This document shows positions 6,538 to 25,759 of a stretch of DNA of 29,638 bases, in pieces. The notes beneath the pieces were generated by a model. The model did no database searches. It worked only from the letters and a program-made list of their open reading frames with translations, and was not told the DNA's origin. The DNA lies in assembly GCA_016181325.1 (NCBI GenBank), contig JACOZO010000002.1, positions 1 to 29,638 of the forward strand. The letters are read 5' to 3'. The first letter of the stretch is position 1, and each line of letters opens with the position of its first letter. This DNA is from Candidatus Woesearchaeota archaeon (lineage in GTDB: Archaea > Nanobdellota > Nanobdellia > Woesearchaeales > GW2011-AR4). Position numbers and translations under genes: made by a program.

Positions 6538-6870
6538 ATGACCCAAATGGAAGCTGAAATCTTCATTGAAATAAAAGAAGCCGAAAAAAAAGCAGAGGAT
6601 ATCCTCCAGAGGGCTAATTCTGACGGTGAAAAGCTGGTTCAGGATGCCAAAAGCAAGGCCTCAAGCCAGCTGATGCACGGGACAAGCTCAATAGACAGGG
6701 AAAAGGCAGACAAGCTGCAGGAATTCAGGGAAAAAGTGTACGTTCTGAAGGACACGAAGCTGTCAGAGGGGAATGAGGCGATATCCAAGCTAAAGGAAAA
6801 ATCAAAGAAAAGCATGGATGCAACTGTAAAGTTCATAAATGAAAAATTTCTTGAGACACTAAGGGAGTAA
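6538..6870 (+). CDS. atpH: A-type ATP synthase subunit H (peripheral stalk)
   Basis: 110-aa charged coiled coil (EIKEAEKKAEDIL...), first gene of the operon, 1 nt before subunit I. Confidence 0.82.
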   Translation: MTQMEAEIFIEIKEAEKKAEDILQRANSDGEKLVQDAKSKASSQLMHGTSSIDREKADKLQEFREKVYVLKDTKLSEGNEAISKLKEKSKKSMDATVKFINEKFLETLRE

Positions 6871-6871
6871 A

Positions 6872-8764: not shown

Positions 8765-8815
8765 CCTGTATGATTGGGTCACGATGTTAACTGAAAAATT
8801 CGGAGGTAAAAGAAA

Positions 8816-9043
8816 ATGGTTGATGTAGGAACTGGTTTGGTTGCCATAGGGTCGGCGGTAGCGATTGTCGGCAGCGCAATTGCCGCGGGAATAGCCGAAA
8901 AATCCATAGGAGCTGCTGCTGTAGGGGCCATGGCTGAAAAAGAAGAGCTGTTCGGCAAAGGGCTTATACTGACAGTAATCCCGGAAACCCTTGTCATATT
9001 CGGCCTTGTAATGGCTCTATTGATCTTAAACCTGGCAAAGTAA
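8816..9043 (+). CDS. atpK: A-type ATP synthase subunit K (c, proteolipid), single hairpin
   Basis: Two TM helices; IGAAAVGAMAEKEELFGKGLILTVIPETLVIFG carries the ion-binding Glu (PET). Confidence 0.97.
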   Translation: MVDVGTGLVAIGSAVAIVGSAIAAGIAEKSIGAAAVGAMAEKEELFGKGLILTVIPETLVIFGLVMALLILNLAK

Positions 9044-9046
9044 GGA

Positions 9047-9598
9047 ATGCAAATGGGGCTTGAAAAAGTAAGGGACGAGATAATCGAGAGAGCAAAAAGC
9101 CAGTCCTCTCGCATTGTTGCCGAAGCAAAGGCAAAGGCGGCGCAGATACTCAGGGAAGCCGAGAAGCAGGTAGAAGGCCACAGGGAAAGGGCATCTGAAG
9201 AGTCCAAGAGGATGATGCTCGAGATAAAGAGGCAGGAGATGGCAAAGGCCGAGCTTGAATTCAAGAAACTGCTGCTCATGTCAAAGAAAGGCCTGATAGA
9301 CGAGGCTTTCGAGAAGGCCAGAAAGGAGATATCAAGGATGAATGAAAAGCAAAGGTCCGAGGCAGTGTCTCTCCTTATAAAAAAAGCTGAAAGGAGTATG
9401 GAAATAGACTGCATCTACTGCAGCAAAAGCGACGCAAAGTTCGTCAAGGGCTACAGGACAACGGAAGCTGCAATAAGCGGCGGAATAATCGCGGAAAACA
9501 AAGGCCAGACAGTCAGGATAGATTACAGCTTTGACACGCTGATGGAGTCTGTAAAGGAAGAGAAGATGCAGCAGATCGCAAAAATGCTGTTTGGATAG
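9047..9598 (+). CDS. atpE: A-type ATP synthase subunit E
   Basis: MGLEKV...I start, coiled coil, C-terminal GGIIAE...RIDYSFD motif; located after K. Confidence 0.93.
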   Translation: MQMGLEKVRDEIIERAKSQSSRIVAEAKAKAAQILREAEKQVEGHRERASEESKRMMLEIKRQEMAKAELEFKKLLLMSKKGLIDEAFEKARKEISRMNEKQRSEAVSLLIKKAERSMEIDCIYCSKSDAKFVKGYRTTEAAISGGIIAENKGQTVRIDYSFDTLMESVKEEKMQQIAKMLFG

Positions 9599-9659
9599 AT
9601 ATTACTAAATAAAGTGACCTATGATGCTGAAAACACTTCATCGCGACGAACGGAAGGAA

Positions 9660-10712
9660 ATGACGAGCACACTTGCCCATAGCGAGTACCCTTATACATA
9701 TGCCCGGACAACTGCCATGAGGGGCATGCTGCTCAAGAAGGCAGACTATCACAAGATACTGAAGATGGACTTCAATGAGATTGCAAGATTTTTGGAAGAG
9801 ACTACCTACAAAAAGTCCATCGATACATTGAGCGCGTCAATGAAAGGCGCAGACCTGCTGGAAGCGGCATTAAACAGCAATCTGGCTGAATCATTCGCAA
9901 AGCTCAGGGCAATCTCTCCCGAAGAGCTGAGGCTTTTGATTGACGAATACCTGCGGAGAAATGACATCGAGGACATCAAGACAATACTGCGCGGCAAGCT
10001 GACAAAAGCCGGCGATAAAATTATAGCGGCATCACTCCAGGCAGCCGGCACCATGGGCAAAGACGCATTGACGGGGCTGCTGAAGAAAGAATCAATAGAG
10101 CAGATATTAAAAGGCATAGACTTCATCGATTTTGCCAGGATCAAGCCTGCCCTGGAAAGGCTGCGCGAGACTAACAGCCTGGAAGAGATAGAGAATGAGC
10201 TGGACAGGTCTTATTACCAAGGGCTTCTGGAGCTGGCAGCTTCCCTTCCAAGCGAAGGCGACTTATTCAGGGATTTTCTGCTGCAGGAAATAGAGATAAT
10301 GAACATAGTCACAATAATCAAGCTGAAGCATGCCGGCATTGACAAAAGCGCAATAAGCAATTTTTTAATATTTACAGGAGTCTCCGGCAACAAAAACCTG
10401 TTTGAGAAGCTTATGAATTCCGATATCGGCTCAATGACAAGATACCTTGAGGCAAGGGATTACAGCGAAGCAATCGTGCAGGGGCTCAAGTCATACGAAA
10501 AAAACGGCTCCCTTATAGAGCTCGAGGCATCGCTTCACACCCATCTGCTCAGAAAATCGGTGCTGCTGCTTCATCAGCACCCATTGTCTGTTGACGTGAT
10601 ACTTGGCTACATGTTTGCCAAGGAAACCGAGGTCAGGAACCTCAAGATCATAGTCCGCGGAAAGCAGCTTGGCGTCGGCGAGGAATTTATCGAGAAGCAG
10701 CTGGTGATATGA
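9660..10712 (+). CDS. atpC: A-type ATP synthase subunit C (start 9660 preferred; ORF open from 9621)
   Basis: YPYTYAR..AM..LL, DIEDIKTILRGK and GYMFAKETEVRNLKIIVRGK motifs. A purine-rich ggaagga precedes ATG 9660. Confidence 0.95.
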   Translation: MTSTLAHSEYPYTYARTTAMRGMLLKKADYHKILKMDFNEIARFLEETTYKKSIDTLSASMKGADLLEAALNSNLAESFAKLRAISPEELRLLIDEYLRRNDIEDIKTILRGKLTKAGDKIIAASLQAAGTMGKDALTGLLKKESIEQILKGIDFIDFARIKPALERLRETNSLEEIENELDRSYYQGLLELAASLPSEGDLFRDFLLQEIEIMNIVTIIKLKHAGIDKSAISNFLIFTGVSGNKNLFEKLMNSDIGSMTRYLEARDYSEAIVQGLKSYEKNGSLIELEASLHTHLLRKSVLLLHQHPLSVDVILGYMFAKETEVRNLKIIVRGKQLGVGEEFIEKQLVI

Positions 10713-11015
10713 ATGGAAATAGCAGTCCTGGGCGGCAATGAATTTGTCGTCGGCTTCCAGCTGGCAGGAGTGAAGCATATAATAGAGGTCGACAAAGATA
10801 CTGATGCAATGGGAAGGATGAACAAGATAAAGAATGACGGCCAGATAAGCATGGTCATAGTCGACGAGGCAGTCCTCAGCAGGCTCGACAGGCAGGACAG
10901 GCTCGAGATTGAGGGGTCTGTAAATCCGGTGTATGTGCCTCTGTCATCAATCTCATCGCAGGAAAACCTGCGCTATCTGATTAAAAAGTCCATAGGAGTG
11001 GACATACTGTCTTGA
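10713..11015 (+). CDS. atpF: A-type ATP synthase subunit F
   Basis: IAVLG....VGFQLAGV and IKKSIGVDI motifs; 100 aa. Confidence 0.96.
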
Positions 11016-11025
11016 GGTAATAAAC

Positions 11026-12756
11026 ATGGAAAAAGGAGTATTATACAGGATTGCAGGGCCGGTTGTCGTGGCAAAAGGGATCTCGCCGAGGATGTATGAC
11101 GTATGCCGGGTCGGCAACGAGAGGCTGATGGGGGAGGTCATCCAGATAGAGGGCGAGAAGTCTATAATACAGGTCTATGAAGATACTTCAGGGATAAAGC
11201 CCGGCGAGCCCGTCGTAAACACAGGAGAGCCCCTGAAAGTAGAGCTTGGGCCCGGAATGCTGACAAGCATCTACGACGGCATACAAAGGCCGCTGCCTGT
11301 CCTGATAAAGCAGATGGGGGATTTCATCAAGAGGGGAGTTGACGCTCCGGCGCTGGACCAGAGCAAGAAGTGGGATTTCAAGGCTGTTGCAAAAAAAGGC
11401 GACAAGGTCACAGGCGGAAGCATAATCGGCGAGGTTGAAGAGACGCCGGGAATAATCCACAGGATAATGGTGCCGCCGAACATTTCAGGCACCCTGCAGG
11501 AGATAAAATCCGGAAAATTCACTGTCAATGATATAGTTGCGAAACTGGACAAAGGGGCAGAGCTGAGGATGAAGCATAACTGGCCCGTCAGGATAGGAAG
11601 GCCTTATGCCAAGAAATTAAGGCCGGAATCTCCTCTGATAACCGGGCAAAGGGTGTTTGACGCGCTGTTCCCCTTAGCCAAGGGAGGGGTTGCTGCAATC
11701 CCGGGGCCGTTCGGAGCCGGAAAGACAGTGAGCCAGCAGCAGCTTGCCAAGTGGTCTGATGCAGACATAATTGTTTATGTAGGCTGCGGAGAGCGCGGAA
11801 ACGAGATGACGGAAGTCCTTACTGAGTTTCCGGAGCTGATTGACCCGAAGACAGGAAAGCCGCTTATGAACAGGACTGTGCTGATAGCCAACACTTCAAA
11901 CATGCCGGTGGCTGCAAGGGAAGCTTCAATCTACACTGGCGCCACAATAGCTGAATATTACAGGGACATGGGGTATTCTGTTGCCCTGATGGCGGACTCG
12001 ACTTCCAGGTGGGCGGAAGCGATGAGGGAAATCTCATCGAGGCTTGAGGAAATGCCTGGCGAGGAAGGATATCCGGCATACCTTTCCACAAGGCTGGCAC
12101 AGTTTTACGAGAGGGCAGGAAGGATCATACCATTCGGCACAGACAAGGAAGGAAGCGTCTCGATTATAGGCGCAGTATCGCCGCCCGGCGGCGACTTTTC
12201 CGAGCCTGTGACGCAGAGCACATTGAGGGTGACGAAAGTGTTCTGGGCGCTTGACGCAAAGCTGGCTCAGAGAAGGCATTTTCCGTCAATAAACTGGCTG
12301 ACATCATATTCCCTTTACCTCAACACGCTTGAGGAATGGTATTCAAAGAACATAGCCACGGACTGGTCTGGCTGCGTGAGCGAGATCATGGGCATCCTCC
12401 AGGAAGAGGAAAAGCTGCTTGAGATTGTGCAGCTTGTCGGCTCTGACGCGCTGCCTGAAAGGCAGCAGCTTACACTGGAGATCGCAAGGGTGATACGGGA
12501 GTTCTTCCTGCAGCAGAATGCATTCCATGAAGTGGACACTTACTCTGAGCTGAAGAAGACGTATCTGGTGATGAAATCCATACTGAGTTATTCAAAACTG
12601 GCAAATGCTGCGCTTGATGCCGGCAGCAAAGTGCAGCCCCTGCTGAGGATAAAATCAAAGGACAGGCTGGCAGAAGTCAAGTTCGAGAAAAACTACGCGT
12701 CTTTGCTTGAGGAGATAAACAGCCAGATGGAAAAAGAGATAGGGGTTTCAAAATGA
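11026..12756 (+). CDS. atpA: A-type ATP synthase catalytic subunit A (no intein)
   Basis: Walker [33 protein letters not shown] and [12 protein letters not shown]. Confidence 0.99.
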
Positions 12757-12895
12757 AAGCAGACTCACTGACGTTCGTGGCTTTCATTTTGAATAGTAAT
12801 AAATAACGAGGTACTTCAAAATGAAAACATATTCACTGGCGTTCATAGCCTTCATTTTTAAGGCTCATGAAAGACGAGGTAGTTAAAAATGAAGG
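12741..12895 (+). repeat. Imperfect 68-nt tandem repeat of an RBS + start-codon + hairpin unit between atpA and atpB
   Basis: aaaATGAA occurs with ATG at 12753, 12821 and 12889 (period 68), each preceded by GGGGT or GAGGT. The first two units fold as aaaatgaa...ttcatttt with loop motif (c/t)tcactg(a/g)cgttc. Confidence 0.85.
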
Positions 12896-14259
12896 AATAC
12901 AAGACAATAACAAAAGTTGCGGGGCCGTTGGTTTTCGTCGAGAAAACTGAGCCAATAGGATACTGCGATCTTGTAAGGATATCACTTCCATCCGGCGACA
13001 TCAAGAATGGCCAGGTGCTTGACACGAGCGACGACATAGTTGTCGTGCAGATATTTGAGGGGACTTCGGGCATTGACAGGGGAACAAGGGTCAAATTTCT
13101 CGGCGACACACTCAAGCTTAGTGTATCCAAGGACATGCTCGGCCGCATATTGAGCGGCTCAGGCAAGCCCATAGACGGAGGGCCTGAAGTAATACCGGAG
13201 AAAAGACTTGACATCGGAGGGGCGGCCATAAATCCTTTTGCAAGGGCTTCTCCGCATGACTTCATCCAGACAGGGATATCGACTATAGATGCGATGAACA
13301 CGCTTGTCCGTGGGCAGAAACTGCCCATTTTTTCGGGCTCTGGGCTGCCGCACAACGAGATTGCGCTGCAGATTGCGAGGCAGGCCAAGGTCATCGGAAA
13401 AAGCGAGAATTTCGTCGTGATTTTTGCTGCCATGGGCATAACCAATGAGGAAGCCCAGTATTTCATGGCTGACTTTGAGCAGACAGGGGCATTGGAGAGG
13501 AGTGTTGTCTTCCTGAACCTTGCAAACGATCCTGCAGTGGAGAGGCTGGTTACGCCTAGGATGGCATTGACGGCGGCGGAATACTTTGCCTACGAGCATG
13601 ATTTTCACGTGCTTGTCATATTAACAGACATGACGAATTACTGCGAATCACTGAGGGAGATCGGTGCGGCAAGGGGAGAAATCCCCGGAAGAAGGGGATA
13701 TCCGGGCTATATGTACACAGACCTTGCCAATATCTATGAGAGGGCAGGCGTGATAAAGGGCAAGAAAGGCAGCATAACCCAGATACCGATACTGACGATG
13801 GTCGGCGACGACATCACTCACCCGATTCCCGACCTGACAGGATACATAACTGAGGGGCAGATAGTGCTGTCAAGGGAACTGCACAGGAAAGGGGTTTATC
13901 CTCCAATAGACGTGCTTCCCTCATTGTCAAGGCTGATGAATCTCGGCATCGGAAAGGAAAAAACAAGGGATGACCACAAGCAGGTTTCCGACCAGATGTA
14001 TGCGGCATATGCAGAGGGCAGGGATCTTAGGGGGCTTGTTGCGATTGTCGGAGAGGAATCTCTGAGCGAAAGGGACAGAAGACTTTTGAAATTCGCTGCG
14101 GAATTCGAGGACAAGTTCGTAAGGCAGAAAAGAAGCGATGACCGCGGCATAGGCGAAGGCACGCTTGACCTGGGCTGGAACCTCCTGGGCGCAATACCCT
14201 CAAATGAGCTGACAAGGATCAGCAAGGAGCTGAAGGAGAAATACCTTAGGCCCAAATAA
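12889..14259 (+). CDS. atpB: A-type ATP synthase subunit B
   Basis: [33 protein letters not shown] and [19 protein letters not shown]. Confidence 0.99.
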
Positions 14260-14285
14260 GCTAGTTCTGACTGAAGGCTGAGATC

Positions 14286-16220
14286 ATGATAGAAACCAAT
14301 GTCTTTTTTGCATCAATTTTTTTTGGCATAAGCATCATCCTCCCTGTCCTGGTCTCCATCAGCAGGCCCATAGCCAGAAGAATCTCAATGGCCTGCGCCG
14401 GCCTTGGGCTACTAGCGCTGGCTGACATTTCCTTAAGGGTGATGATAACCAATTCGGCCATGACGCTGAACTTGGCTTCTTTCTACAAGGAACTGAGCTT
14501 TGAGCTGCTCATTGACAGGCTCTCAGCATTCTTCATCCTTACAATCATACTGGTTTCCCTGGCTGTGCTGATTTACTCTTTTAGGTATGTGGAGCATCTC
14601 AAAAAAAAGCACGGGAAAAACATTGCGGTATCACTGATGAATCTTTTTATTGTATCCATGATACTTGTTGTTGCCTCAAAAAACCTCATCAGCTTCCTTT
14701 TCTTATGGGAATTGATGTCTATAAGCTCATTCTTCCTCGTATATTTCGATTATGAGCAAAAAACAACAGGAAAAGCGGGGATGTTCTACATTATCATGAC
14801 ACAGCTCAGCACTTTGTTCCTGATTGCCTCATTCTTACTAGTCTACAGCTCAGGCAATTCATTTGAGATAAGGCAGATGCCGCAAAATGCCCCTATGGCT
14901 TCAGTAATTTTTATACTTGCGTTTTTGGGCTTCGGCATAAAGGCGGGAGTAATCCCATTCCATAAATGGCTTCCTTATGCGCATCCTGCTGCGCCGTCAA
15001 ATATTTCTGCGCTGATGTCCGGCCTGATGATAAAGGTTGCAATCTACGGAATGATAAGAATTTTATTGACAGTCCTCCCCAAGCCCCTGCTGTGGTGGGG
15101 TGTGCTGATACTCCTATTCGGCACCCTGTCTGCGGTGCTGGGCGTCATTTATGCCCTCAAGGAGCACGACATAAAGCGTCTGCTCGCGTATCACAGCATA
15201 GAAAATATCGGAATCATCCTAATAGGGCTCGGATTGTATGTCATATTCAAAGCCAGCCACTTTGAGGCGCTTGCCTTCATGGCAATTGCCGGCTCTTTGT
15301 TCCACACACTAAACCATGCATTATTCAAAAGCCTGCTGTTCCTCACTTCCGGCTCGGTTGTCATGGCCACTGAAACCAAGAACATTGAAGACATGGGCGG
15401 CCTGATAAAAAATATGCCTGCAACGGCATTCCTTTTCCTGATAGGCGCCGTGTCGATTTCAGCCCTGCCGCCTTTCAACGGATTTGTAAGCGAATATATG
15501 ATATTCTATGTTTTCTTTAATACCCATGTCCTAATCTCGCCGTTCCTGAAAATACTTCTTGTCGCTTCTGCATGCATCCTTGCGCTCACAAGCGCCCTTG
15601 CAGCCGCATGCTTTGTAAAGGCGTTCGGGACAATCTTCCTCGGCGTTCCACGGTCCAAGCATGCTTCATCAGCACAAGAAGCTTCAAAATCAATGATAAT
15701 AGGGCCTGCCATAATAGCTATCTTGTGCGCGCTCCTTGGGATATTTTCCTTCCAGATATTCAGCATACTCGGATTTAACTTTCCAATACCTAACATGATG
15801 TACATAAGCATTGTATTAGCCGGAACCTACTTAATATTCTTCCTCCTCCTTTACCGTGCATCCAAAATCCGCGTCTATGAAACATGGTCATGCGGCTTTC
15901 CCCTGTCAAACGGAAAAACAGAATACACTGCATCAGGCTTTTCAGAGCCAATTGTGACAATCTTCAGGGCAATCTACAAGCCCAAAAGAAATTCAACAAA
16001 AGAATTCTATGATGACAGCAATGTAATTGTCAGCCATGGGCATGCAGAAATGTCACTTATGAAATTTTTTGAGGAGTACCTGTATGCCCCTGTCTTAAAG
16101 GCAGTCGATTTCACCTCAGGGATAACAGCAAGGCTTCAGGCAGGATACCTTGACCTGTACATAGTTTACGTATTCCTCGGAAGCCTTGCGCTTCTAATAG
16201 CAATGGGGGTCCTGACATGA
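14286..16220 (+). CDS. hyfB: HyfB-like antiporter-type membrane subunit (NuoL/MrpA family) of an Ehr complex
   Basis: FLWELMS (Glu), GIKAGVIPFHKWLPYAHPAAPS (Lys), LLAYHSIENIG, NHALFKSLLF and C-terminal WSCG. Confidence 0.92.
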   Translation: MIETNVFFASIFFGISIILPVLVSISRPIARRISMACAGLGLLALADISLRVMITNSAMTLNLASFYKELSFELLIDRLSAFFILTIILVSLAVLIYSFRYVEHLKKKHGKNIAVSLMNLFIVSMILVVASKNLISFLFLWELMSISSFFLVYFDYEQKTTGKAGMFYIIMTQLSTLFLIASFLLVYSSGNSFEIRQMPQNAPMASVIFILAFLGFGIKAGVIPFHKWLPYAHPAAPSNISALMSGLMIKVAIYGMIRILLTVLPKPLLWWGVLILLFGTLSAVLGVIYALKEHDIKRLLAYHSIENIGIILIGLGLYVIFKASHFEALAFMAIAGSLFHTLNHALFKSLLFLTSGSVVMATETKNIEDMGGLIKNMPATAFLFLIGAVSISALPPFNGFVSEYMIFYVFFNTHVLISPFLKILLVASACILALTSALAAACFVKAFGTIFLGVPRSKHASSAQEASKSMIIGPAIIAILCALLGIFSFQIFSILGFNFPIPNMMYISIVLAGTYLIFFLLLYRASKIRVYETWSCGFPLSNGKTEYTASGFSEPIVTIFRAIYKPKRNSTKEFYDDSNVIVSHGHAEMSLMKFFEEYLYAPVLKAVDFTSGITARLQAGYLDLYIVYVFLGSLALLIAMGVLT

Positions 16221-17158
16221 ATGAGCTGCTGATATATTCTGTATTGAATATACTTGCTGTAATATTAATCTCCCCTTTTTTTATGGGAGTCATAAAGAAA
16301 ATAAAGGCATGGTGCCAGGGCAGGGAAGGACAGCCCCTGCTGCAGCAATACTATAATCTGATTAAGCTATTGAGGAAGGAAAGCGTTGTTTCAAGCACGT
16401 CTTCATGGATCACAAGGGCAACGCCTTATGTCAACGTCGCAGCCCTGATAACTGCCGCTTTGTTTGTCCCTGTGCTGTTTGTGCCTTCCGGCAGCACATT
16501 ATTTGGAAACCTCATACTCATGCTTTACCTTCTTGCGCTTGCAAAATTCTTCATGGCCCTGGCAGGGCTCGATGCAGGAAGCACTTTTGGGGGGATGGGG
16601 AGCTCAAGGGAAATGGCATTCTCTGCGATACTTGAGCCGGTCATAATCATAATATTCCTTGCGCTGGCTTTTATGTTCAAAACCCCCAACCTGTTCGAGA
16701 TATTCAGGCAGGCTTCTGCAGTCGGCATACTTTATGCCAAGCCCCTGCTCATTCTTCTGATGGTCTCGCTTTTCATTGTGCTGATTGCGGAAACTTCAAG
16801 GGTGCCAGTAGACAATCCTGAAACCCATCTTGAGCTCACTATGATTCATGAAGGCATGGTCCTTGAGCAGTCAGGGAAATATCTTGGCATGATGGAGCTG
16901 AGCCATGCCATGAAGCAGACTCTGCTGATGGCGGTATTGATCAATATACTTGTCCCGATAGGATTTTCAACTGCATTAAGCTTTTATTCCATTGCTATCT
17001 CTTTTGCCGCATTTATGGCAAAAGGCACTGCCCTTGCTGCAGTAATCGGAATTTTTGAATCATCAATTGCAAAATTGAGGCTGTTCAGGCTGCCCGTAAT
17101 GTTCATGGTGGCATTTTTCCTTGCCTTCCTGACAATAATACTGGAGGTGTATGGATGA
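16217..17158 (+). CDS. hyfC: HyfC-like membrane subunit (NuoH family)
   Basis: GREG..LLQ.YY.L.KL..KE, GGMGSSRE and ETSRVPVDNPETHLELTMIHEGM; ATGA overlap with hyfB. Confidence 0.92.
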   Translation: MNELLIYSVLNILAVILISPFFMGVIKKIKAWCQGREGQPLLQQYYNLIKLLRKESVVSSTSSWITRATPYVNVAALITAALFVPVLFVPSGSTLFGNLILMLYLLALAKFFMALAGLDAGSTFGGMGSSREMAFSAILEPVIIIIFLALAFMFKTPNLFEIFRQASAVGILYAKPLLILLMVSLFIVLIAETSRVPVDNPETHLELTMIHEGMVLEQSGKYLGMMELSHAMKQTLLMAVLINILVPIGFSTALSFYSIAISFAAFMAKGTALAAVIGIFESSIAKLRLFRLPVMFMVAFFLAFLTIILEVYG

Positions 17159-17835
17159 TGCCTCCCTTGGCTCTGCCGGAAATAAACAAGATACTGCTTG
17201 TCCTGATACTTTTCCTGGCAGTGCTGATAATAACTGTGAAAGACCTTTTGTTCCTTAACTTCCTGTACAGGATACAGTCTTTTTTTATTGTGCTTGTGTC
17301 TTTGGCCCTGTATGCCCCGGATAGGAAAACATCTCTGCTTGCTGTTGCATCCATTACGCTCCTGAGCAAGGTCATAATAATCCCTTCCATCATCAAGAAT
17401 GCCCAGAACAAGCTGAAAATAAAGCGGGATGTGGAATTCCACTATCTTACGCCTATAAGCTCGATCCTCGTCAGCATAGCGGTGTTTTTTGCAGTTTACC
17501 TGTCATTTTCGAGGCTCATCACAGAACTGCCGGACAAGACTTTCCTAATAACAGGCTCTTTATCAGTGTCCCTCATGTTCATGGGCATGATAATAATATT
17601 CACAAGGCAGCAGACAATAACCAATATCATAGGCTTCCTCACGATAGAAAATGGCGTCCTTCTATTCTCACTTTTCATGGCCGAACTTCCTTTAATCGTT
17701 GAAGTCCTTATCCTGCTTGATTTGGTAATGCTGATAGTGCTGGCTTCATTGCTGGCATTCGGCATAGATTCCAATATAGAGGAATTCCACAAGAAGCTGC
17801 AGCCTCTTAGCAAATTCCTGGGGGGCCAAAAATGA
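17155..17835 (+). CDS. hyfE: HyfE-like membrane subunit
   Basis: Multi-TM; IIGFLTIENG motif; located between the hyfC and hyfF homologues with 4-nt overlaps on both sides. Confidence 0.85.
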   Translation: MMPPLALPEINKILLVLILFLAVLIITVKDLLFLNFLYRIQSFFIVLVSLALYAPDRKTSLLAVASITLLSKVIIIPSIIKNAQNKLKIKRDVEFHYLTPISSILVSIAVFFAVYLSFSRLITELPDKTFLITGSLSVSLMFMGMIIIFTRQQTITNIIGFLTIENGVLLFSLFMAELPLIVEVLILLDLVMLIVLASLLAFGIDSNIEEFHKKLQPLSKFLGGQK

Positions 17836-19283
17836 TGCTGCTCAGCATTCTTGTCGGAGTGTCGGCAATCCTGCTGATCATATTTTTGCGCTCCAATAAA
17901 TCAATAAACCTAGTCTCGCTGCTCCACGCGCTGTATTACGCCGGACTCTCAATATACCAAATGTATGCGGGCAGCCTGCCGCAATACTACCTTGAGAACA
18001 AATATTTTTTTATTGACAGCCTTGGAATCTATGAACTTCTGATAGCCTCAGTAATATTCTTCCTGTCAATCCTTTACCTTGAAGGCTATATCAAAAGCCT
18101 TGTCGAGCATGAAGAGCTAAATCCAAAATTTGTAAAGCTTTTCTATATCTGCATGAACCTGCTGCTGATGTCAGTCGCATTCTCCTTTTTCTCCAACAAC
18201 CTGGCGCTATTCTGGATTTTCCTTGAACTTACAACCATCTTCTCTGCAATACTCATAGTCATACTGAATGCGGTAGAAAACATCTATGCTGCATTGAAAT
18301 ACCTGTTTATAGCATCAACGTGCATGCTTTTTTCCTTCGTGGGGCTCATACTGCTATATGCGTTCACGAAGCATAATTTCGGGGCAGGCACATTAAACTG
18401 GAGCGAGCTTATGTCCTCAGCAAGCCTGATCACCCCAAGGATTGCGGCATACTCCTTCATGTTCATCTTTATCGGCTTTGGCGCAAAAGCTGCCATTGCG
18501 CCTTTTCACACCTGGGTGCCGCATGCGCATTCCAAAGCTCCCTCGGCGGTGAGCGCAATACTCTCTGCTGTTATCCTGAATGTCGGCATTTACGGAATCA
18601 TCAGGACATTTGCGGTTGTGCGCCAAACCAGTTCAGGGCAAATCGCTTCAAATATGCTGATAATATTCGGGTTTTTCACTCTTGGCATCGCAAGCCTGAG
18701 CATGCTCCAGCAAAAAAACGTAAAAAAACTCATAGCTTTTTCAAGCATTGAGCATATGGGAACCATCCTGATTGCAATAGGGCTTGCAACAAAAGCGTCT
18801 GTTTTTTGGGTGCTGATATACATCATGGCAAGCGCGCTGGCCAAATCCCTCCTATTCCTCTGCGCAGGGATAGCCAACAGGCAGTACATGAGCAATGACA
18901 TTGACTCTGTCAGGAATTTCATAAAGCTGCAGCCTCTGGCTTCTGTCGGAATTATAGTAGGGGTCCTTGCCATCTCAGGGCTGCCTCCTTTTGCGCTGTT
19001 CATGCCAAAACTGCTTGTCCTTATACAAATCAGCAAATTCTCAGTTTTAATGCTGATAATCGCTCTCTTATCCATACTGATATCCACAGGCTCTTTTGCA
19101 TTATTCTTCACAAAATTCTTTTCAAGCGTTGACGAGGCTTCGTCTATACATAAATATAATACTCCCGCGAAAATGAAAGCTTCAATAATAATCCTGATAA
19201 TCCTCCTTGCATTGCTGGGCATTTTCCTGCCTGACAGGCTTGCGGACATTGCCGGCAACATAGTGGCTGAACTGAAGATTTAA
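17832..19283 (+). CDS. hyfF: HyfF-like antiporter-type membrane subunit (NuoM/N, MrpD family)
   Basis: FWIFLELTT (Glu), GFGAKAAIAPFHTWVPHAHSKAPS (Lys), AFSSIEHMG and SGLPPF. Confidence 0.92.
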   Translation: MMLLSILVGVSAILLIIFLRSNKSINLVSLLHALYYAGLSIYQMYAGSLPQYYLENKYFFIDSLGIYELLIASVIFFLSILYLEGYIKSLVEHEELNPKFVKLFYICMNLLLMSVAFSFFSNNLALFWIFLELTTIFSAILIVILNAVENIYAALKYLFIASTCMLFSFVGLILLYAFTKHNFGAGTLNWSELMSSASLITPRIAAYSFMFIFIGFGAKAAIAPFHTWVPHAHSKAPSAVSAILSAVILNVGIYGIIRTFAVVRQTSSGQIASNMLIIFGFFTLGIASLSMLQQKNVKKLIAFSSIEHMGTILIAIGLATKASVFWVLIYIMASALAKSLLFLCAGIANRQYMSNDIDSVRNFIKLQPLASVGIIVGVLAISGLPPFALFMPKLLVLIQISKFSVLMLIIALLSILISTGSFALFFTKFFSSVDEASSIHKYNTPAKMKASIIILIILLALLGIFLPDRLADIAGNIVAELKI

Positions 19284-19291
19284 GGTGCAAT

Positions 19292-20857
19292 ATGCAAAAC
19301 CAAGAAAAAGAACTGAGGGAATTCCTGAAGGGGGTGCCTATAAGGCTCATTGGCTGCGAAAACGGCAATGAATTATATGCCAATGCCGATGAGGCGTCAT
19401 TCCCTACCTCTATGAAGCTCCTGAACGGCAAAGGATTTACTCTCATCTCGATGTTCTGCGAGGAAAAGTTCAACAGCTCAAGATTCACTCTGTTCTACGT
19501 GTTTGAGCGGGAATTATTCGACGATGTGCTGGTTGTAGTCAGAAACCTAAAATCCAAAAAGGCCGCTTCAGTGATGCAAATTTTTCCATCCGCGTCATGG
19601 TATGAAAGGGAAATAATGGACGGGTTTGGAATTGAATTTGAAGGCAATCCCGACAAAAGGCGGCTTTTCCTGCATGAACACTTTCCCAGGGACTTTCACC
19701 CCCTTCTCAAGTCTTTCAGGAACTCCCATATAAAATCCAATAACGGCAATAAGGCTGAGTACATGTTCAAGGAAATCAGCGGAGAAGGCGTCTATCAGAT
19801 CCCTGTCGGGCCGGTGCATGCAGGAATCATCGAGCCGGGCCATTTCAGATTCAGCGTGATAGGGGAAACAATATACAACCTTGAAATAAGGATGTTCTAC
19901 AAGCACAGGGGCATTGAGAAGCTTGCCGAAGGCAAAACCCCGGAATACTGCGTCAGGATTGCCGAGTCAATAAGCGGAGATGAGACTGCTGCAAACGCCG
20001 CTGCATTCTGCATGGCTGTTGAAAAAATCTCAAGCCGCACCCCTCCCATGAGGGCATTGCAGCTGCGCACAATATTTCTGGAGATGGAAAGGATTTACTC
20101 CCATCTTGGAGACTTGGCAGGCATGGCTGTCGATGTTGCATTTCCAGTCGGTGCAAGCCCTTTTTTCATACTGCGCGAGAAGATTTTGCGGGAAAATGAG
20201 CAGCTTACCGGCTCGAGATTCATGAAAGGGATCATGGCAATAGGCGGCCTGCGCAAGGATGTCAGCGAAAAGGCCATCAAGAATCTCAGGAAGTTCCTTG
20301 ATGCGTTTGAGCATGAATTCGAAAAGGCTCTTGACGTGGTATACAGCTCGCCTTCAGCAATAGACCGGCTGGAAACAACCGGCGCAATAAAAAATGAGAT
20401 TGTGAGGCCCCTGAACATAACAGGCCCTGCTGCAAGGGCATGCGGCTTTCAGAAAGACACAAGAAAAAACCACCCTTACGGAACATACTCCGGGCTTAAA
20501 TTCAATATCCATACATCAGAAAATGGGGATGTCATGTCCAGGTTCAATGTAAAGGCCGGCGAAATCATGGAATCTGTGAGAATCATCAGGAATACAGCTC
20601 AAAACCTGCAGAAAGGGCCGATCCTAAGCAAAGCCCGCATCAGGGACGGCCATTGCCTGTCCTTAGTTGAATCCCCAAGGGGGCAGAGCCTGCACTGGGC
20701 CCATATCAAACACGGGCTTGTGTACCGGTACAAAATCAGGACAGCATCTTTCTGCAACTGGCAGTCTATAGAGCATGCGGTCATGGGGAACATAGTGCCG
20801 GACTTTCCCCTAATAAACAAAAGCCTCAACCTGTCTTATGCAGGGACGGACTTGTGA
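19292..20857 (+). CDS. hyfG: Ehr large subunit (HyfG/HycE-like NuoC+NuoD fusion) without Ni-binding motifs
   Basis: WYEREIMDGFGI.FEGNPD.RRL (NuoC-like), GPVHAGIIEPGHFRF, YKHRGIEK and ESPRG. L1 reads ESISGDE and L2 reads NLSYAGTDL, with no CxxC. Confidence 0.93.
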   Translation: MQNQEKELREFLKGVPIRLIGCENGNELYANADEASFPTSMKLLNGKGFTLISMFCEEKFNSSRFTLFYVFERELFDDVLVVVRNLKSKKAASVMQIFPSASWYEREIMDGFGIEFEGNPDKRRLFLHEHFPRDFHPLLKSFRNSHIKSNNGNKAEYMFKEISGEGVYQIPVGPVHAGIIEPGHFRFSVIGETIYNLEIRMFYKHRGIEKLAEGKTPEYCVRIAESISGDETAANAAAFCMAVEKISSRTPPMRALQLRTIFLEMERIYSHLGDLAGMAVDVAFPVGASPFFILREKILRENEQLTGSRFMKGIMAIGGLRKDVSEKAIKNLRKFLDAFEHEFEKALDVVYSSPSAIDRLETTGAIKNEIVRPLNITGPAARACGFQKDTRKNHPYGTYSGLKFNIHTSENGDVMSRFNVKAGEIMESVRIIRNTAQNLQKGPILSKARIRDGHCLSLVESPRGQSLHWAHIKHGLVYRYKIRTASFCNWQSIEHAVMGNIVPDFPLINKSLNLSYAGTDL

Positions 20858-20864
20858 GCTTAAA

Positions 20865-21383
20865 ATGATAAAGCCAATCCAGAACATTTTCACGAAAAAA
20901 GCGCCGGAAGGCTTCCATTTTGACGACAAGGAATTTGCAGAGCTTGGAATGAAGCTGAAAAAAAATGTAAGCTCGGTATTCGGAAGAAGCCTTGCCATCA
21001 GGGAAGTCGACACCGGGAGCGACAATTCAACTGAAATAGAGATGGTAAACCTGACCACGCCGCATTACGACATTGAAAGATTCGGAATAACCTTTGTGGC
21101 GTCCCCGAGGCATGCAGACGCTCTGGCAGTCACCGGGGCAGTGACAAGAAACATGGAACTTGCCCTGAAAAAGACTTATGAAGCCACTCCAAACCCCAAG
21201 ATAGTCATAGCTGTCGGCGATGATGCATGCAACGGCGGGATATTCAGGAATTCATATGCTGTATGCGGAGGCGTTGATAAAGTTATACCTGTGGACCTTA
21301 AAATCCCCGGGAACCCCCCTTCCCCGAAAGAAATCCTCAAGGCGCTGCTCGCTTTAATGGAAAAAATTAAAAAAAGAAGCTGA
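20865..21383 (+). CDS. hyfI: Ehr small subunit (HyfI/NuoB-like) with all four FeS-ligating cysteines substituted (start 20865 preferred; ORF open from 20838)
   Basis: SLAIREVDTGSDNSTEIE, YDIERFGITFVASPRHADAL.VTG.VTRNM, AVGDDAC.GG and IPGNPP. Confidence 0.9.
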   Translation: MIKPIQNIFTKKAPEGFHFDDKEFAELGMKLKKNVSSVFGRSLAIREVDTGSDNSTEIEMVNLTTPHYDIERFGITFVASPRHADALAVTGAVTRNMELALKKTYEATPNPKIVIAVGDDACNGGIFRNSYAVCGGVDKVIPVDLKIPGNPPSPKEILKALLALMEKIKKRS

Positions 21384-21398
21384 ATATGCAGGCAAAAG

Positions 21399-22028
21399 AT
21401 GGCACAAGACCTGAAACCCACAAGAAGCGAACTGCTGAAGCTTAAGAAGCAGATAAAGCTGGCCAAATCAGGCCACGGGCTCCTCAAGAGGAAAAGAGAC
21501 GGGCTGATAATCGAGTTCTTCAAAATCCTGAAAAGGGCGAAGTCCATAAGGCAGGAGCTGACTGAGCAGTACAAAACTGCCCTCCAAAAAATAAATATTG
21601 CCAGGACACTTGAATCCGACCTTAAAGTCAGGTCCATAGCTATGGCAATAAAGGAGCTTCCGGAAGTTAAGGTGCAGGCCAGAAACATAATGGGCGTCGT
21701 CGTGCCTGCAATAAGCGCCTCCGAAATAAAAAAGCAGTTCATGCACAGGGGCTACGGCTTTTACGGCGTATCTTCTTCAATAGACGAAGCGGCGCAGGCA
21801 TATGAGCTGGTCGTTGAAAAGGCGATATTGATAGGGGAGATAGAGACTTCAATGAAGAAGATGCTGAATGAGATAGAGAAGACAAAGAGAAGGGTAAATG
21901 CGCTGGAATTCGTCGTGATGCCGAGGCTGGAGAAGCAGAAATCCTTCATCCAGATGAGGCTTGAGGAGATGGAGCGGGAGAATATCTTCAGGATGAAGCG
22001 CATAAAGACGAAGGCTGCTGCGGCATGA
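21399..22028 (+). CDS. atpD: A-type ATP synthase subunit D
   Basis: KPTRSELL.LK..I.LA..GH.LLKRKRDGL and EIEKTKRRVNALE motifs. Confidence 0.98.
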   Translation: MAQDLKPTRSELLKLKKQIKLAKSGHGLLKRKRDGLIIEFFKILKRAKSIRQELTEQYKTALQKINIARTLESDLKVRSIAMAIKELPEVKVQARNIMGVVVPAISASEIKKQFMHRGYGFYGVSSSIDEAAQAYELVVEKAILIGEIETSMKKMLNEIEKTKRRVNALEFVVMPRLEKQKSFIQMRLEEMERENIFRMKRIKTKAAAA

Positions 22029-22691: not shown

Positions 22692-23099
22692 ATGATACTG
22701 GCTTATCAGGAAATTCTTGCAAGGCTCGGGCTTGCAGTCATAGCAGGCGGCCTTATAGGCCTGGAGAGGGAAATAGTCCACAAGCCTGCGGGAATAAGGA
22801 CGCACATGCTTGTGTGCCTTGGCTCTGCATTGTTTATCTTAGTGGCTGTTCAGGAAATGCCTGATGAGTCGGCAAGGGTTATGGCCGGAATAGCAACCGG
22901 AATTGGATTTTTGGGGGCAGGCACAATATTCATGGCAAAAAATGCGGTGCATGGACTTACAACGGCAGCCTCAATCTGGGCAGTTGCAGCTGTAGGATTG
23001 ACCCTAGGGCTCGGATATTACATTATTGCATTGATATCGGTAGTGCTTATAGCGGCAGTACTGCAGCTTAACCGGATAAAATTCTTCAGAGAACTATAA
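22692..23099 (+). CDS. mgtC: MgtC/SapB family membrane protein (membrane domain only)
   Basis: GGLIGLERE...KPAGIRTHMLVCLGS, GIATGIGFLGAG.I and VHGLTTAASIWA.AAVG signatures. Confidence 0.93.
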   Translation: MILAYQEILARLGLAVIAGGLIGLEREIVHKPAGIRTHMLVCLGSALFILVAVQEMPDESARVMAGIATGIGFLGAGTIFMAKNAVHGLTTAASIWAVAAVGLTLGLGYYIIALISVVLIAAVLQLNRIKFFREL

Positions 23100-23125: not shown

Positions 23126-25759
23126 TTAAAACTCAAAAATCTTTTGCTTTGCAGCCATTGCCGTCGGAGATTCGCCGCCGTGCCATGTGTACCTCGGCCT
23201 TACCCTTATGGGAAAAATCCTTTCGTTCGTGTCGTCAAAAATCACGGCTGCGCCTGACTCCCTCGGCAGCAGATTAAGCTGCTTGTCGATGCCCTCGCGC
23301 ATGTAGCTCTGCACAAGCATGCTCAATGCCTCGACATCCAGGTTTGCAGTCAGCCTATGGGATATCACTATGTCTGATTGAGTAATCACATCTGTGTGGA
23401 TTTTTCCCGGCTGCTGGGTTGCAAGTACAAGCGATATTCCTGGCTGGCGGCCTTCCCTCAGGATTGTTATCAGGGACTGCGAAGCTGACGTCGTGCCTTC
23501 CCTTGGCAGGAATTCATGGGCCTCGTCCAGGACAAGCCATACCAATGGCTCGCTGCTCTCCTTTTCCTGCTCCTCCGAGAAAAAATGCAGCGCCTGCGTG
23601 ACAGACTGCAGCTCCTCTGCCTTTCTTGCTACCATCCTCTGAATGAACAGCTTCTCTGCCACCAGCCCGACAACCAATGCCCTTAATGAGGATGCGCCTG
23701 CCATGGATGCATAGCAGCTGACATCGAGCACAGTGACCTGTCCGGGAACGACAAGGTGCTCTATCATCGTGCCTTCCTTGCTGAACAAGCCCCATTTATC
23801 TGCCAATAGGAACTTATTTTCAGCGGCGTCCTTGACTTCCTTGGTAACCCTGTCATCTTTATGGACCGCTTCTATGATCTCATGGATGTCGAACTCCTTG
23901 CCTTCCTCCTTCATCTCGTTTATAACGCGCTCTATAAGCACCGCCACCGAGTCATTCGGGGGGATCTCAAAAATTGACACCCATTCAGACGCGTCTATGT
24001 CAGAAGGCTTGACTGAAAAAGGGTAATCCGTAGGGATGCCCTGATCCTTGTAGCTTTTGAAATATCCTGCTGGCGTGAATATCTGTATATTGAGGCCCTT
24101 GGGCTCGATTTCCCACTGGTCAAGAAGGGGCTTTTCCTTGTTGTTCGGGTACTTCATCGTCCAATAAACGCCCATCGTGTCCAGCATTATTATGGAAAGC
24201 TTGTTTTTTATCGCTTCAGGAAGGTCGAATATTCCTTCTGCGATGGCGCCCATCGTGTAGCTGTTATGCACGATGATATTATTTGCAACAAAATTATGGA
24301 TTTCCGGCACGGTTATGTCATACACTGTAAATTCTCCACGAAGATTTTCTATTGAGACTATTTCATCCCAGAAAATATCTGACTGGGCGAGCATAAGCAT
24401 CCTATAATTATCATCAGCCATGGCTATCTGCAGAAGTTTCTGCCTTGAAGGAGAATAATTTATGCTTGATCTTGCTGCTTTTGGAAATTTATAATTTAAA
24501 TGCCTTCCTGCAGAGGCCCAGCTTCTTGGCCTGTAGAAATCCCACATTTCTTTAGGGATTGTATCAACATTAGGGTTTCTTTTTGCGCTTTTTAATTCAA
24601 GCAATGCGGCATTCTGCCTTTCCTCTTTCTGCCCAAAAAAGCCTATATCCTGTATGTATTTCTCGACATTATTCCCGTCCAAAACCAATTCGAAGCTATC
24701 AAATAACTTATTTCTACATTTTATTTTCTTATGCCTCAGTCTTGCTAAAATCTCAAATCTCAACAAAAGACTTTGAATCTGTCTGGCAAGCTTTAATGAT
24801 GAAGTAGAGTATGATATCTCCCAATATACCCTGTCTTTTTGCGGCTTGTATATACTTCCATCACAGCTAAAAAGCCTGTTAAGAAACAATGAAAGCCTGT
24901 TCTTAGGATACTGCATAATCTCATCAGAAAGGAATTTTTCTTTCGAGAGCAAATTGTAAATGCCGTGCTTTTCCAATAATTCGCGGATTTTAGTCTTCTC
25001 GTGAGTTATAGAAGTTCCTATGCTGAATTTTCCACCTATATCCCTGTTGATTTTGTAACCAAGAACCTTCCTTCTGTAATTCCTATAACTGACTTTGTAA
25101 TGTCCCTCCTTTAACCTGACTAGAGATATCTTTTCGTCAAGCCCTTTTAGGGAATTTTGCATATCCCGTATTATTTTTTCATCTTTATTAGAAAAAAACA
25201 TGGACTTTTTTGTGTGCCCTTCTGATATCATATATGCCAAAATCTTTACATCGCATTCCTGCTGTACAGCCGAGCCGAAAGAACTTATTTTTCTTGGAGT
25301 AGCTATCCTTTCTCCTGCCCCTAGCCTGCAAGAAGGCCTCCATCCTGCCACAGTTAAAAGGGGATGCTCAGGGGTAAGTTTTATCTCCCTGCCGCTTCTG
25401 AGCCGAATATGCAGCAAATCGCTTACCTTCCTTTTAAAGAACTCTGTCTTTTTACCGGGAATTATCTTTAAATCGTGGCTTAACCCCATAATATTGTTAT
25501 TCTTATAATCACATAAATCCCTGATTGGAACTTCTAAACCATTGTCTAGTGTCACAAAGGTATCCCCATGGAGGCATTTCCCGCTGCCCCTCTTGCCGGC
25601 GATGAAAACGACGTGGGACCTGGTGACGTCCATGTAAACCTTGTTTGACAGCGAAGTCGTCTGCCCCATCTGGACATACTGCTTGCCAAGAAATATCGTG
25701 CCGTCAAGCCCGAATTTCACCCTGTCAGACTCTTTCCTGCCAATTATAATCTCATACAT
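23126..25759 (-). CDS. HerA/DUF87-like P-loop ATPase precursor containing an intein (spliced product about 439 aa)
   Basis: HVVFIAGKRGSGK|SYT split Walker A, WLVLDEAHEFLP Walker B and REGRQPGISLVLATQQP. Confidence 0.9.
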   Translation of the reverse strand: MYEIIIGRKESDRVKFGLDGTIFLGKQYVQMGQTTSLSNKVYMDVTRSHVVFIAGKRGSGKCLHGDTFVTLDNGLEVPIRDLCDYKNNNIMGLSHDLKIIPGKKTEFFKRKVSDLLHIRLRSGREIKLTPEHPLLTVAGWRPSCRLGAGERIATPRKISSFGSAVQQECDVKILAYMISEGHTKKSMFFSNKDEKIIRDMQNSLKGLDEKISLVRLKEGHYKVSYRNYRRKVLGYKINRDIGGKFSIGTSITHEKTKIRELLEKHGIYNLLSKEKFLSDEIMQYPKNRLSLFLNRLFSCDGSIYKPQKDRVYWEISYSTSSLKLARQIQSLLLRFEILARLRHKKIKCRNKLFDSFELVLDGNNVEKYIQDIGFFGQKEERQNAALLELKSAKRNPNVDTIPKEMWDFYRPRSWASAGRHLNYKFPKAARSSINYSPSRQKLLQIAMADDNYRMLMLAQSDIFWDEIVSIENLRGEFTVYDITVPEIHNFVANNIIVHNSYTMGAIAEGIFDLPEAIKNKLSIIMLDTMGVYWTMKYPNNKEKPLLDQWEIEPKGLNIQIFTPAGYFKSYKDQGIPTDYPFSVKPSDIDASEWVSIFEIPPNDSVAVLIERVINEMKEEGKEFDIHEIIEAVHKDDRVTKEVKDAAENKFLLADKWGLFSKEGTMIEHLVVPGQVTVLDVSCYASMAGASSLRALVVGLVAEKLFIQRMVARKAEELQSVTQALHFFSEEQEKESSEPLVWLVLDEAHEFLPREGTTSASQSLITILREGRQPGISLVLATQQPGKIHTDVITQSDIVISHRLTANLDVEALSMLVQSYMREGIDKQLNLLPRESGAAVIFDDTNERIFPIRVRPRYTWHGGESPTAMAAKQKIFEF
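24263..25576 (-). mobile_element. Intein with LAGLIDADG homing endonuclease, 438 aa
   Basis: Starts CLHGDT.V, has block B TPEHPLL, ends VYDITV...HNFVAN.IIVHN followed by +1 Ser. LAGLIDADG-like helices ILAYMISEG and FLNRLFSCDG. A sampled line is about 33% GC versus about 55% in an extein line. Confidence 0.95.

Follow-up and report, generated by a model that had tools for sequence, protein, structure and literature searches.

A predicted cofactor-free Ehr complex encoded within the A-type ATPase operon of a Woesearchaeota archaeon

Ehr complexes are a known, named and functionally uncharacterised family of complex-I-type assemblies. The Ehr cassette described here lies in contig JACOZO010000002.1 of a Candidatus Woesearchaeota archaeon (assembly GCA_016181325.1), in a stretch of 29,638 nucleotides that was analysed as a whole and is called the window below. 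Its six genes (ehrABCDLS) are positioned between two genes of an A-type ATPase operon, and all four ligands of the [4Fe-4S] cluster are replaced in its small subunit. Judging from the protein sequences, the six-subunit complex lacks every redox cofactor site: the Ni-Fe site, the proximal cluster and the quinone site are all missing, as is any electron-input partner. The complex is nevertheless maintained by selection, along with its ion-translocation residues. That it has left electron transfer and is still maintained is well supported, and a redox-independent, Mrp-like cation/proton antiporter or gradient converter is the most economical reading, one that we consider somewhat more probable than not. 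Three points are new here: a large clade of Ehr complexes from archaea and Dehalococcoidia is explicitly shown to be entirely cofactor-free, whereas its relatives of the Hyq type retain the cluster; the route once taken by electrons has acquired carboxylates; and the cassette is verified to be nested in the ATPase operon of a Woesearchaeota genome.

The small subunit and its former ligand positions are located in the window as follows.

20865 to 21383, forward strand: EhrS-like small subunit of the NuoB/HycG/MbhJ fold, 172 amino acids, without Fe-S ligands (PF01058, 8.5e-28; NuoB subfamily in NCBIfam)
21021 to 21032, forward strand: D53-N-S-T56, in place of the CxxC ligand pair (alignment to MbhJ and HycG; codons GAC at 21021-23 and ACT at 21030-32)
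21219 to 21230, forward strand: D119-D120-A-C122, in which D120 occupies the third-ligand site and C122 is a conserved non-ligand cysteine (alignment; codon GAT at 21222-24)
21312 to 21314, forward strand: N150, in place of the GCPP cysteine, the fourth ligand (alignment; codon AAC)

An alternative start at 20838 is possible; 20865 is preferred because the homologues begin there, as does the gene annotated by NCBI for a sister assembly. The 172-residue translation carries the motifs GSDNSTE, VGDDAC and IPGNPP, and these motifs and the four codons are exactly those read in a first-pass annotation made from the window sequence alone. Its remark that each replacement takes two base changes from TGY follows from the genetic code. 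Ligand positions were assigned by HMMER alignment to the solved structures of MbhJ (6cfw_J), HycG (7z0s_G) and bovine and ovine PSST. D53 and T56 align with the cysteines of CxxC, D120 with the cysteine of GxC and N150 with that of GCPP, which bears out the claim that all four [4Fe-4S] ligands are replaced; none of the ligands by which NuoB holds cluster N2 of complex I is found at the aligned positions. An AlphaFold2 model of the protein has a mean predicted local distance difference test score of 91.7 and superposes on MbhJ with a root-mean-square deviation of 2.0 Å over 137 columns, and this match indicates that the NuoB fold persists without the cluster. The fold is thus predicted to be kept, yet a [4Fe-4S] cluster should not be held by this small subunit.

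A scan of species-representative genomes gave 337 relatives of the small subunit, of which the best 80 (60-76% identical) were taken together with the window sequence as a set of 81, here called the window clade. The 81 sequences represent at least six phylum-level groups, with members in Methanosarcina, Methanoregula, Methanospirillum, Bathyarchaeia, Altiarchaeota, Woesearchaeota, Thermoplasmatota and Dehalococcoidia. Positions 53 and 119 are Asp and position 150 is Asn in 81/81; position 120 is Asp in 79 and Glu in 2, and position 122 is Cys in 80/81. D119 also occurs in Hyq, where the motif reads GDCA. The first-pass expectation of a clade sharing D/T/D/N thus stood for the fixed D53 and N150 and, apart from the two Glu, for D120. 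It failed at position 56, which is Thr in 50, Ala in 20, Pro in 9 and Val in 2; this variability argues against T56 as a ligand of anything. The four cysteines are missing from every member of the clade and from an independent assembly that is 99.3% identical to the window, so the absence is shared by close relatives. Ligand replacement is a trait of the clade, and assembly error is excluded.

The protein contains two cysteines only, C122 and C134. The latter is Cys in the window sequence alone and Leu in 69 other clade members. C122 is also common among relatives with all four ligand cysteines, so its conservation is older than the cysteine loss, and it occupies an ancestral non-ligand position. 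A cluster bound through these two residues, which the first-pass annotation had raised against its own proposal, is accordingly unlikely. Across the clade, 59 of the 172 positions are at least 97% invariant. The ratio dN/dS has a median of 0.10 and a maximum of 0.27 (147 pairs with dS below 1.5), in agreement with the purifying selection looked for at the outset. Ligand loss combined with this low median upholds the earlier proposal that electron transfer was abandoned while the complex was retained.

The remaining five subunits and the altered sites of the large subunit are the following.

14286 to 16220, forward strand: EhrA, HyfB/NuoL-like antiporter-type subunit, 644 amino acids (NF006418, 'hydrogenase membrane subunit', 798.9 bits against a cut-off of 794; PF00361)
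16217 to 17158, forward strand: EhrB, NuoH/HycD-like, 313 amino acids (PF00146; HycD 7z0s_D, 1.4e-39)
17155 to 17835, forward strand: EhrC, HyfE-like, 226 amino acids (NF008556, hydrogenase 4 membrane subunit, 3.8e-15)
17832 to 19283, forward strand: EhrD, HyfF/NuoN-like antiporter-type subunit, 483 amino acids (NF006427, 533.9 bits against a cut-off of 511; PF00361)
19292 to 20857, forward strand: EhrL-like large subunit, a NuoC-NuoD fusion of 521 amino acids without Ni-Fe ligands (Pfam Complex1_30kDa and Complex1_49kDa; best solved relative HycE 7z0s_E, 3e-73)
19973 to 19984, forward strand: S228-G-D230-E231, in place of RxCGxC, the Cys sites having become S and E (alignment to HycE; clade-invariant)
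20828 to 20851, forward strand: N513-L-S515-Y-A-G518-T-D, in place of DPCxxCxxR, the Cys sites having become S and G (alignment to HycE; clade-invariant)

The four Ni-Fe cysteines of HycE align with S228, E231, S515 and G518, so that all Ni-Fe ligands are gone from the large subunit. The His and Tyr of the complex I quinone site (Nqo4, 2fug_4), which we take to be His38 and Tyr87 in Thermus thermophilus Nqo4 numbering, align with I180 and G229. In the clade, 121/521 positions of this subunit are invariant, including the β1-β2-loop motif VGPVHAGiIEPGHFRF. The membrane arm is equally well kept at its functional positions: the WE, K, HK and FKS motifs of the antiporter-type subunits and the NuoH-like acidic loop PvDNPeTHLELT are invariant in the clade. 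As first reported from the window sequence, CxxC motifs are absent from all six subunits, and a NuoI/HycF-type ferredoxin gene is missing from the cluster. Pfam and NCBIfam revealed no known catalytic motif in the cassette proteins.

The six genes are tightly packed in the order ehrA-B-C-D-L-S (hyfBCEFGI type), with the small subunit last. They occur together in nearly all of the 80 related loci, and in the same order in most. This architecture and the lost Ni-Fe ligands identify the cassette as a putative Ehr complex of the ehrABCDLS type. Coppi is said to have named Ehr in 2005 for GSU0739-45 of Geobacter sulfurreducens, and Ehr complexes were reportedly surveyed by Marreiros et al. in 2013. 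The window cassette shares with published Ehr complexes the six-subunit set, a large subunit without Ni-Fe ligands and the lack of an electron-input module. The name was coined for the Geobacter complex (PMC7894505), and in Methanospirillum hungatei the ehrABCDLS genes are Mhun_1817-1822, a cluster treated as a ferredoxin-reducing hydrogenase (PMC4704411). Published definitions of Ehr turn on the loss of the Ni-Fe ligands, and a position in an ATPase operon is absent from PMC4704411. Three loci of Methanospirillum species (L053, L054 and L077) fall in the window clade, with small subunits 66-73% identical to that of the window and the pattern D/x/D/N. Loss of the Fe-S cluster from an Ehr small subunit was not found in the open literature, a coverage that does not include the founding Ehr papers, so that an earlier description is possible.

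The nearest relatives that keep the cysteines are the Hyq complexes of alphaproteobacteria (Bradyrhizobium, Methylocapsa and others; hyqBCEFGI type), of which P0011 is 66% identical over the core. Hyq has the same gene order as the window cassette, and its large-subunit Ni-Fe positions read S/S/S/G in 76/80. Its small subunit, however, reads CCCC in 80/80, whereas the window clade reads D/x/D/N and the window itself D/T/D/N. The supposition that complexes of the Ehr type can keep this cluster is thereby confirmed. Complexes of the Ehr type therefore exist in cluster-bearing and cluster-free forms, and the window cassette falls in a branch stripped of both sets of ligands. Just nine fixed differences set the small subunits of the window clade and Hyq apart, three of which fall at ligand positions; against this sister group, the statement that essentially only the ligand positions changed holds. 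Carboxylates have been gained relative to Hyq at three former cysteine positions, namely D53, D120 and E231 (position 231 of the large subunit is Glu in the Fe-S-free clade and Ser in Hyq). A new basic residue that might compensate for these carboxylates was sought among the fixed differences from Hyq, and none was present.

Cysteine loss in the small subunit is not confined to one pattern. Among the 150 closest representatives of clusters at 50% identity, most keep all four cysteines and about two dozen have lost them, with patterns such as DADN, NEGD, SEGD and DVDD. In a phylogeny built from 142 representatives, the cysteine-less proteins are scattered, and at least four losses fall on well-supported branches, although the tree is poorly resolved and the protein short. 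Repeated, independent loss is thus suggestive only. A further cysteine-free Ehr subtype was seen at locus L267, where the small-subunit pattern is D/A/A/D and the gene order is permuted to S-A-B-C-D-L.

The best solved relatives of the small, large and NuoH-like subunits are those of Escherichia coli formate hydrogenlyase (HycG/HycE, 7Z0S) and the Pyrococcus furiosus membrane-bound hydrogenase MBH (MbhJ/MbhL, 6CFW), which share the same fold. Group 4 [NiFe]-hydrogenases have a Ni-Fe site, a proximal [4Fe-4S] cluster and a ferredoxin subunit with two [4Fe-4S] clusters; the window complex is without all three. Neither HypD, of the Hyp maturation genes, nor a Ni-Fe hydrogenase was found in the window genome, but with an assembly of 0.91 Mb at 77% completeness, absence is not proven. 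SufB/D is present, so the organism can make Fe-S clusters, and the window assembly holds only one NuoB homologue. Mrp antiporters share with the cassette the antiporter-like subunits with conserved Glu, Lys and His (PF00361 is matched twice here) and the absence of redox chemistry. They have in addition MrpB, C, E, F and G, for which the cassette gives no Pfam match, and lack the NuoB/C/D/H-like arm that the cassette encodes. The window complex may work like Mrp, but it stands outside the Mrp family.

Ehr large subunits without metal-binding cysteines have also been described from the ultra-small genomes of CPR bacteria, with a patchy spread and likely acquisition by transfer (Jaffe et al. 2020, PMC7304191). 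The CPR complexes, which are bacterial, make up a monophyletic clade of their own; their small subunit and any ATPase linkage are not discussed in PMC7304191. Conserved neighbours were considered as a functional clue and rejected: when the 624 open reading frames around the 80 Ehr loci were clustered into families, none occurred at more than 14 loci, and the commonest (response regulator, GNAT, ABC ATPase, hydrolase and FilR1) are unrelated to redox or ion chemistry.

The cassette of the window is enclosed by the genes of the A-type ATPase, as listed here.

6538 to 12756, forward strand: A-type ATPase genes H-like, I, K (c subunit, 8816-9043), E, C, F and A
12889 to 14259, forward strand: atpB, A/V-type ATPase subunit B, 26 nucleotides upstream of the cassette
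21399 to 22028, forward strand: atpD, central-stalk subunit D, 15 nucleotides downstream of the small subunit

The operon order is H-I-K-E-C-F-A-B, ehrABCDLS, D, with atpB to atpD occupying 12889-22028. By its AtpB relatives, the organism is a member of the Woesearchaeota (DPANN). The same order is found in the independent assembly mentioned above (L093, 99.3% DNA identity), and both junctions between cassette and ATPase genes are bridged by contigs from four groundwater metagenome runs. Nesting between atpB and atpD is real and not an assembly artefact. Since atpD follows the cassette, co-transcription with the A-type ATPase is implied; the basis is gene geometry, and the runs that contain the stretch are all DNA. 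In genome G008, from another genus of the same family, atpD is followed by ehrA on the same strand, an arrangement that spans a contig break (L091 and L092). The cassettes of the window genome (G000) and of G008 are not sisters in the tree, and a common clade is not rejected by the approximately unbiased (AU) test (p = 0.32). The base composition of the cassette carries no foreign-DNA signature.

Several local features of this operon were recorded as well. Between the window and L093, atpB differs by 28 synonymous changes and 1 non-synonymous change (a divergence of about 2%), ehrA-D by 3 changes in total over 5 kb, and the large subunit by 9. This very uneven density of single-nucleotide differences across 13000-21000 may mean that the cassette has recently swept or recombined, or that the atpB allele is itself a recombinant. 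At 14088-14148, in the 3' part of atpB, the contigs of all four runs break, and short alternative unitigs and loose ends occur; together these suggest co-existing strain variants. At 12515-12582, an insertion or deletion of about 66 nucleotides relative to L093 affects the 3' end of atpA and the atpA-atpB spacer (AtpA is 576 amino acids long in one and 554 in the other), in the region where the first-pass annotation noted a triplicated unit of ribosome-binding site and start. The c subunit (8816-9043) has 75 amino acids in one hairpin, and a P-E-T motif in helix 2 that is compatible with Na+ binding; its partner residue in helix 1 is not clear.

The reading considered most economical is that the complex would perform cation/proton exchange or gradient conversion through the Glu/Lys/His subunits of its membrane arm. 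Because no chemical energy input remains, only downhill or exchange transport would be possible. The old electron path would now be lined by D53, D119, D120 and N150 of the small subunit and by D230 and E231 of the large subunit, and such an acid- and amide-lined path may form a polar or cation-binding vestibule, or a gate, that feeds the NuoH-like channel. In the window lineage, the complex might convert between the H+ and Na+ gradients that the A-type ATPase builds up or draws on, as the position of the cassette inside the ATPase operon suggests without proving. An obligate partnership with the ATPase goes further; it is speculative, and we think it improbable.

A number of observations weigh against this antiporter reading or against its extension to the ATPase. 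Transport by any Ehr complex is pure inference from sequence. Mrp antiporters work without a peripheral arm, so simple antiport does not account for the strong conservation of the two soluble subunits, which may hint at a ligand or reaction not yet recognised. The window genome also encodes a CPA-type Na+/H+ exchanger and a membrane pyrophosphatase, so that an extra antiporter is not obviously needed. Linkage to the ATPase is rare: it was seen at one of the 80 Ehr loci, where the genes are convergent and 5.7 kb away, at 0/80 other Woesearchaeota ATPase operons, and in 0/7 further cassette-bearing genomes from a sample of 400 across the phylum. As a family-wide rule, linkage to the ATPase was rejected on these counts. 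In a genome of the same genus as the window (L090), atpB and atpD are 49 nucleotides apart and no Ehr was found, at 79% completeness. In G008, the Ehr-linked atpB is frameshifted and the atpD carries an in-frame TGA (L091, G008:C142). A second, distant atpD lies on another contig of G008; assembly error, decay or a mixed bin are possible causes.

Among the alternatives to the antiporter reading, a chemically driven pump survives best, although we regard it as rather unlikely. Here a pocket of Asp, Glu, Asn and Ser would bind a divalent metal or a small substrate, and a non-redox reaction (hydration, hydrolysis or ligand binding) would drive or gate translocation through the coupling loops. It would account for soluble subunits (59/172 positions invariant in the small one and 121/521 in the large one) that are conserved as strongly as the membrane ones, and for former ligand sites that hold invariant polar or acidic residues and not random ones, in a peripheral arm that would be superfluous in Mrp. 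Against it, neither a candidate substrate nor a conserved accessory gene emerged around the 80 loci, and Pfam and NCBIfam yielded no catalytic motif.

Only slightly lower odds can be given to an accessory role dedicated to the ATPase, in which Ehr would be a stoichiometric or physical partner of A1Ao that sets or recycles the coupling ion, for example; we hold this to be unlikely. The gaps of 26 and 15 nucleotides that place the cassette between atpB and the essential atpD speak for it, as do the second genus with atpD and ehrA on one strand and the P-E-T motif of the c subunit. Nearly all other carriers, however, lack the linkage, and there is no evidence of physical contact. The insertion, moreover, looks recent, given the same-genus genome without the cassette and the near identity of ehrA-D between strains whose atpB genes are about 2% apart. 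The fuller proposal, in which a redox-stripped complex-I-type machine of a DPANN archaeon is a built-in ATPase partner whose acid-lined ion path converts or recycles the coupling ion (H+/Na+), is likewise a long shot.

It is very improbable that C122, together with Asp or Asn, still binds an atypical Fe-S cluster or a mononuclear redox metal in the small subunit and that the complex is still an oxidoreductase. C122 is present in 80/81 sequences two residues from D120, and Asp ligates Fe-S clusters in a few proteins. The conservation of this cysteine, however, predates the loss of the other four, and no cluster held by a single cysteine is known to us. A donor module, a second cluster, a Ni-Fe site and a quinone site are all missing, with I180 and G229 at the positions of the quinone-site His and Tyr. 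A non-functional relic or selfish passenger that landed in the operon by chance would suit the patchy distribution, the proneness to horizontal transfer and the recent insertion here, but is hardly credible, being contradicted by six intact frames in dozens of genomes spanning phyla, by a dN/dS of 0.10 and by invariant functional motifs.

In databases, these proteins are named 'Ni,Fe-hydrogenase III small subunit', 'formate hydrogenlyase', 'MbhJ' or 'NuoB family'. Without cofactor ligands, the complex should be able neither to make H2 nor to carry electrons. Metabolic reconstructions that list it among the hydrogenases or under complex I, whether for methanogens, Bathyarchaeia, Dehalococcoidia, DPANN or CPR, would therefore be wrong. 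A natural cofactor-free complex-I-type machine under selection is a test object for the communication between peripheral and membrane arms, and it bears on the evolutionary links among Mrp, MBH and complex I. Nesting in the ATPase operon supplies a concrete, testable functional hypothesis; if the ATPase-partner reading were true, an ATPase and a complex-I-like antiporter would form a minimal chemiosmotic circuit without respiration.

Other observations concern the surroundings of the operon and the genomes compared. An MgtC-family gene lies at 22692-23099, about 660 nucleotides downstream of atpD, and none was seen beside the 80 other Woesearchaeota ATPase operons; MgtC of Salmonella is an inhibitor of the F1Fo ATP synthase. 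On the reverse strand, 23126-25759 encodes an 877-residue protein with a weak Zot/P-loop match; a LAGLIDADG homing-endonuclease domain is part of the intein that it contains. In another Nanoarchaeota genome (L293, G238:C16), a distant complex-I-like cluster is divergent beside the ATPase operon, and its small subunit keeps at least two ligand cysteines. Several records labelled 'uncultured Methanosarcinales archaeon isolate binchicken_*' (L003, L008, L191, L195 and others) have AtpB proteins 80-89% identical to those of Woesearchaeota and genomes of DPANN size, and their NCBI label looks wrong.

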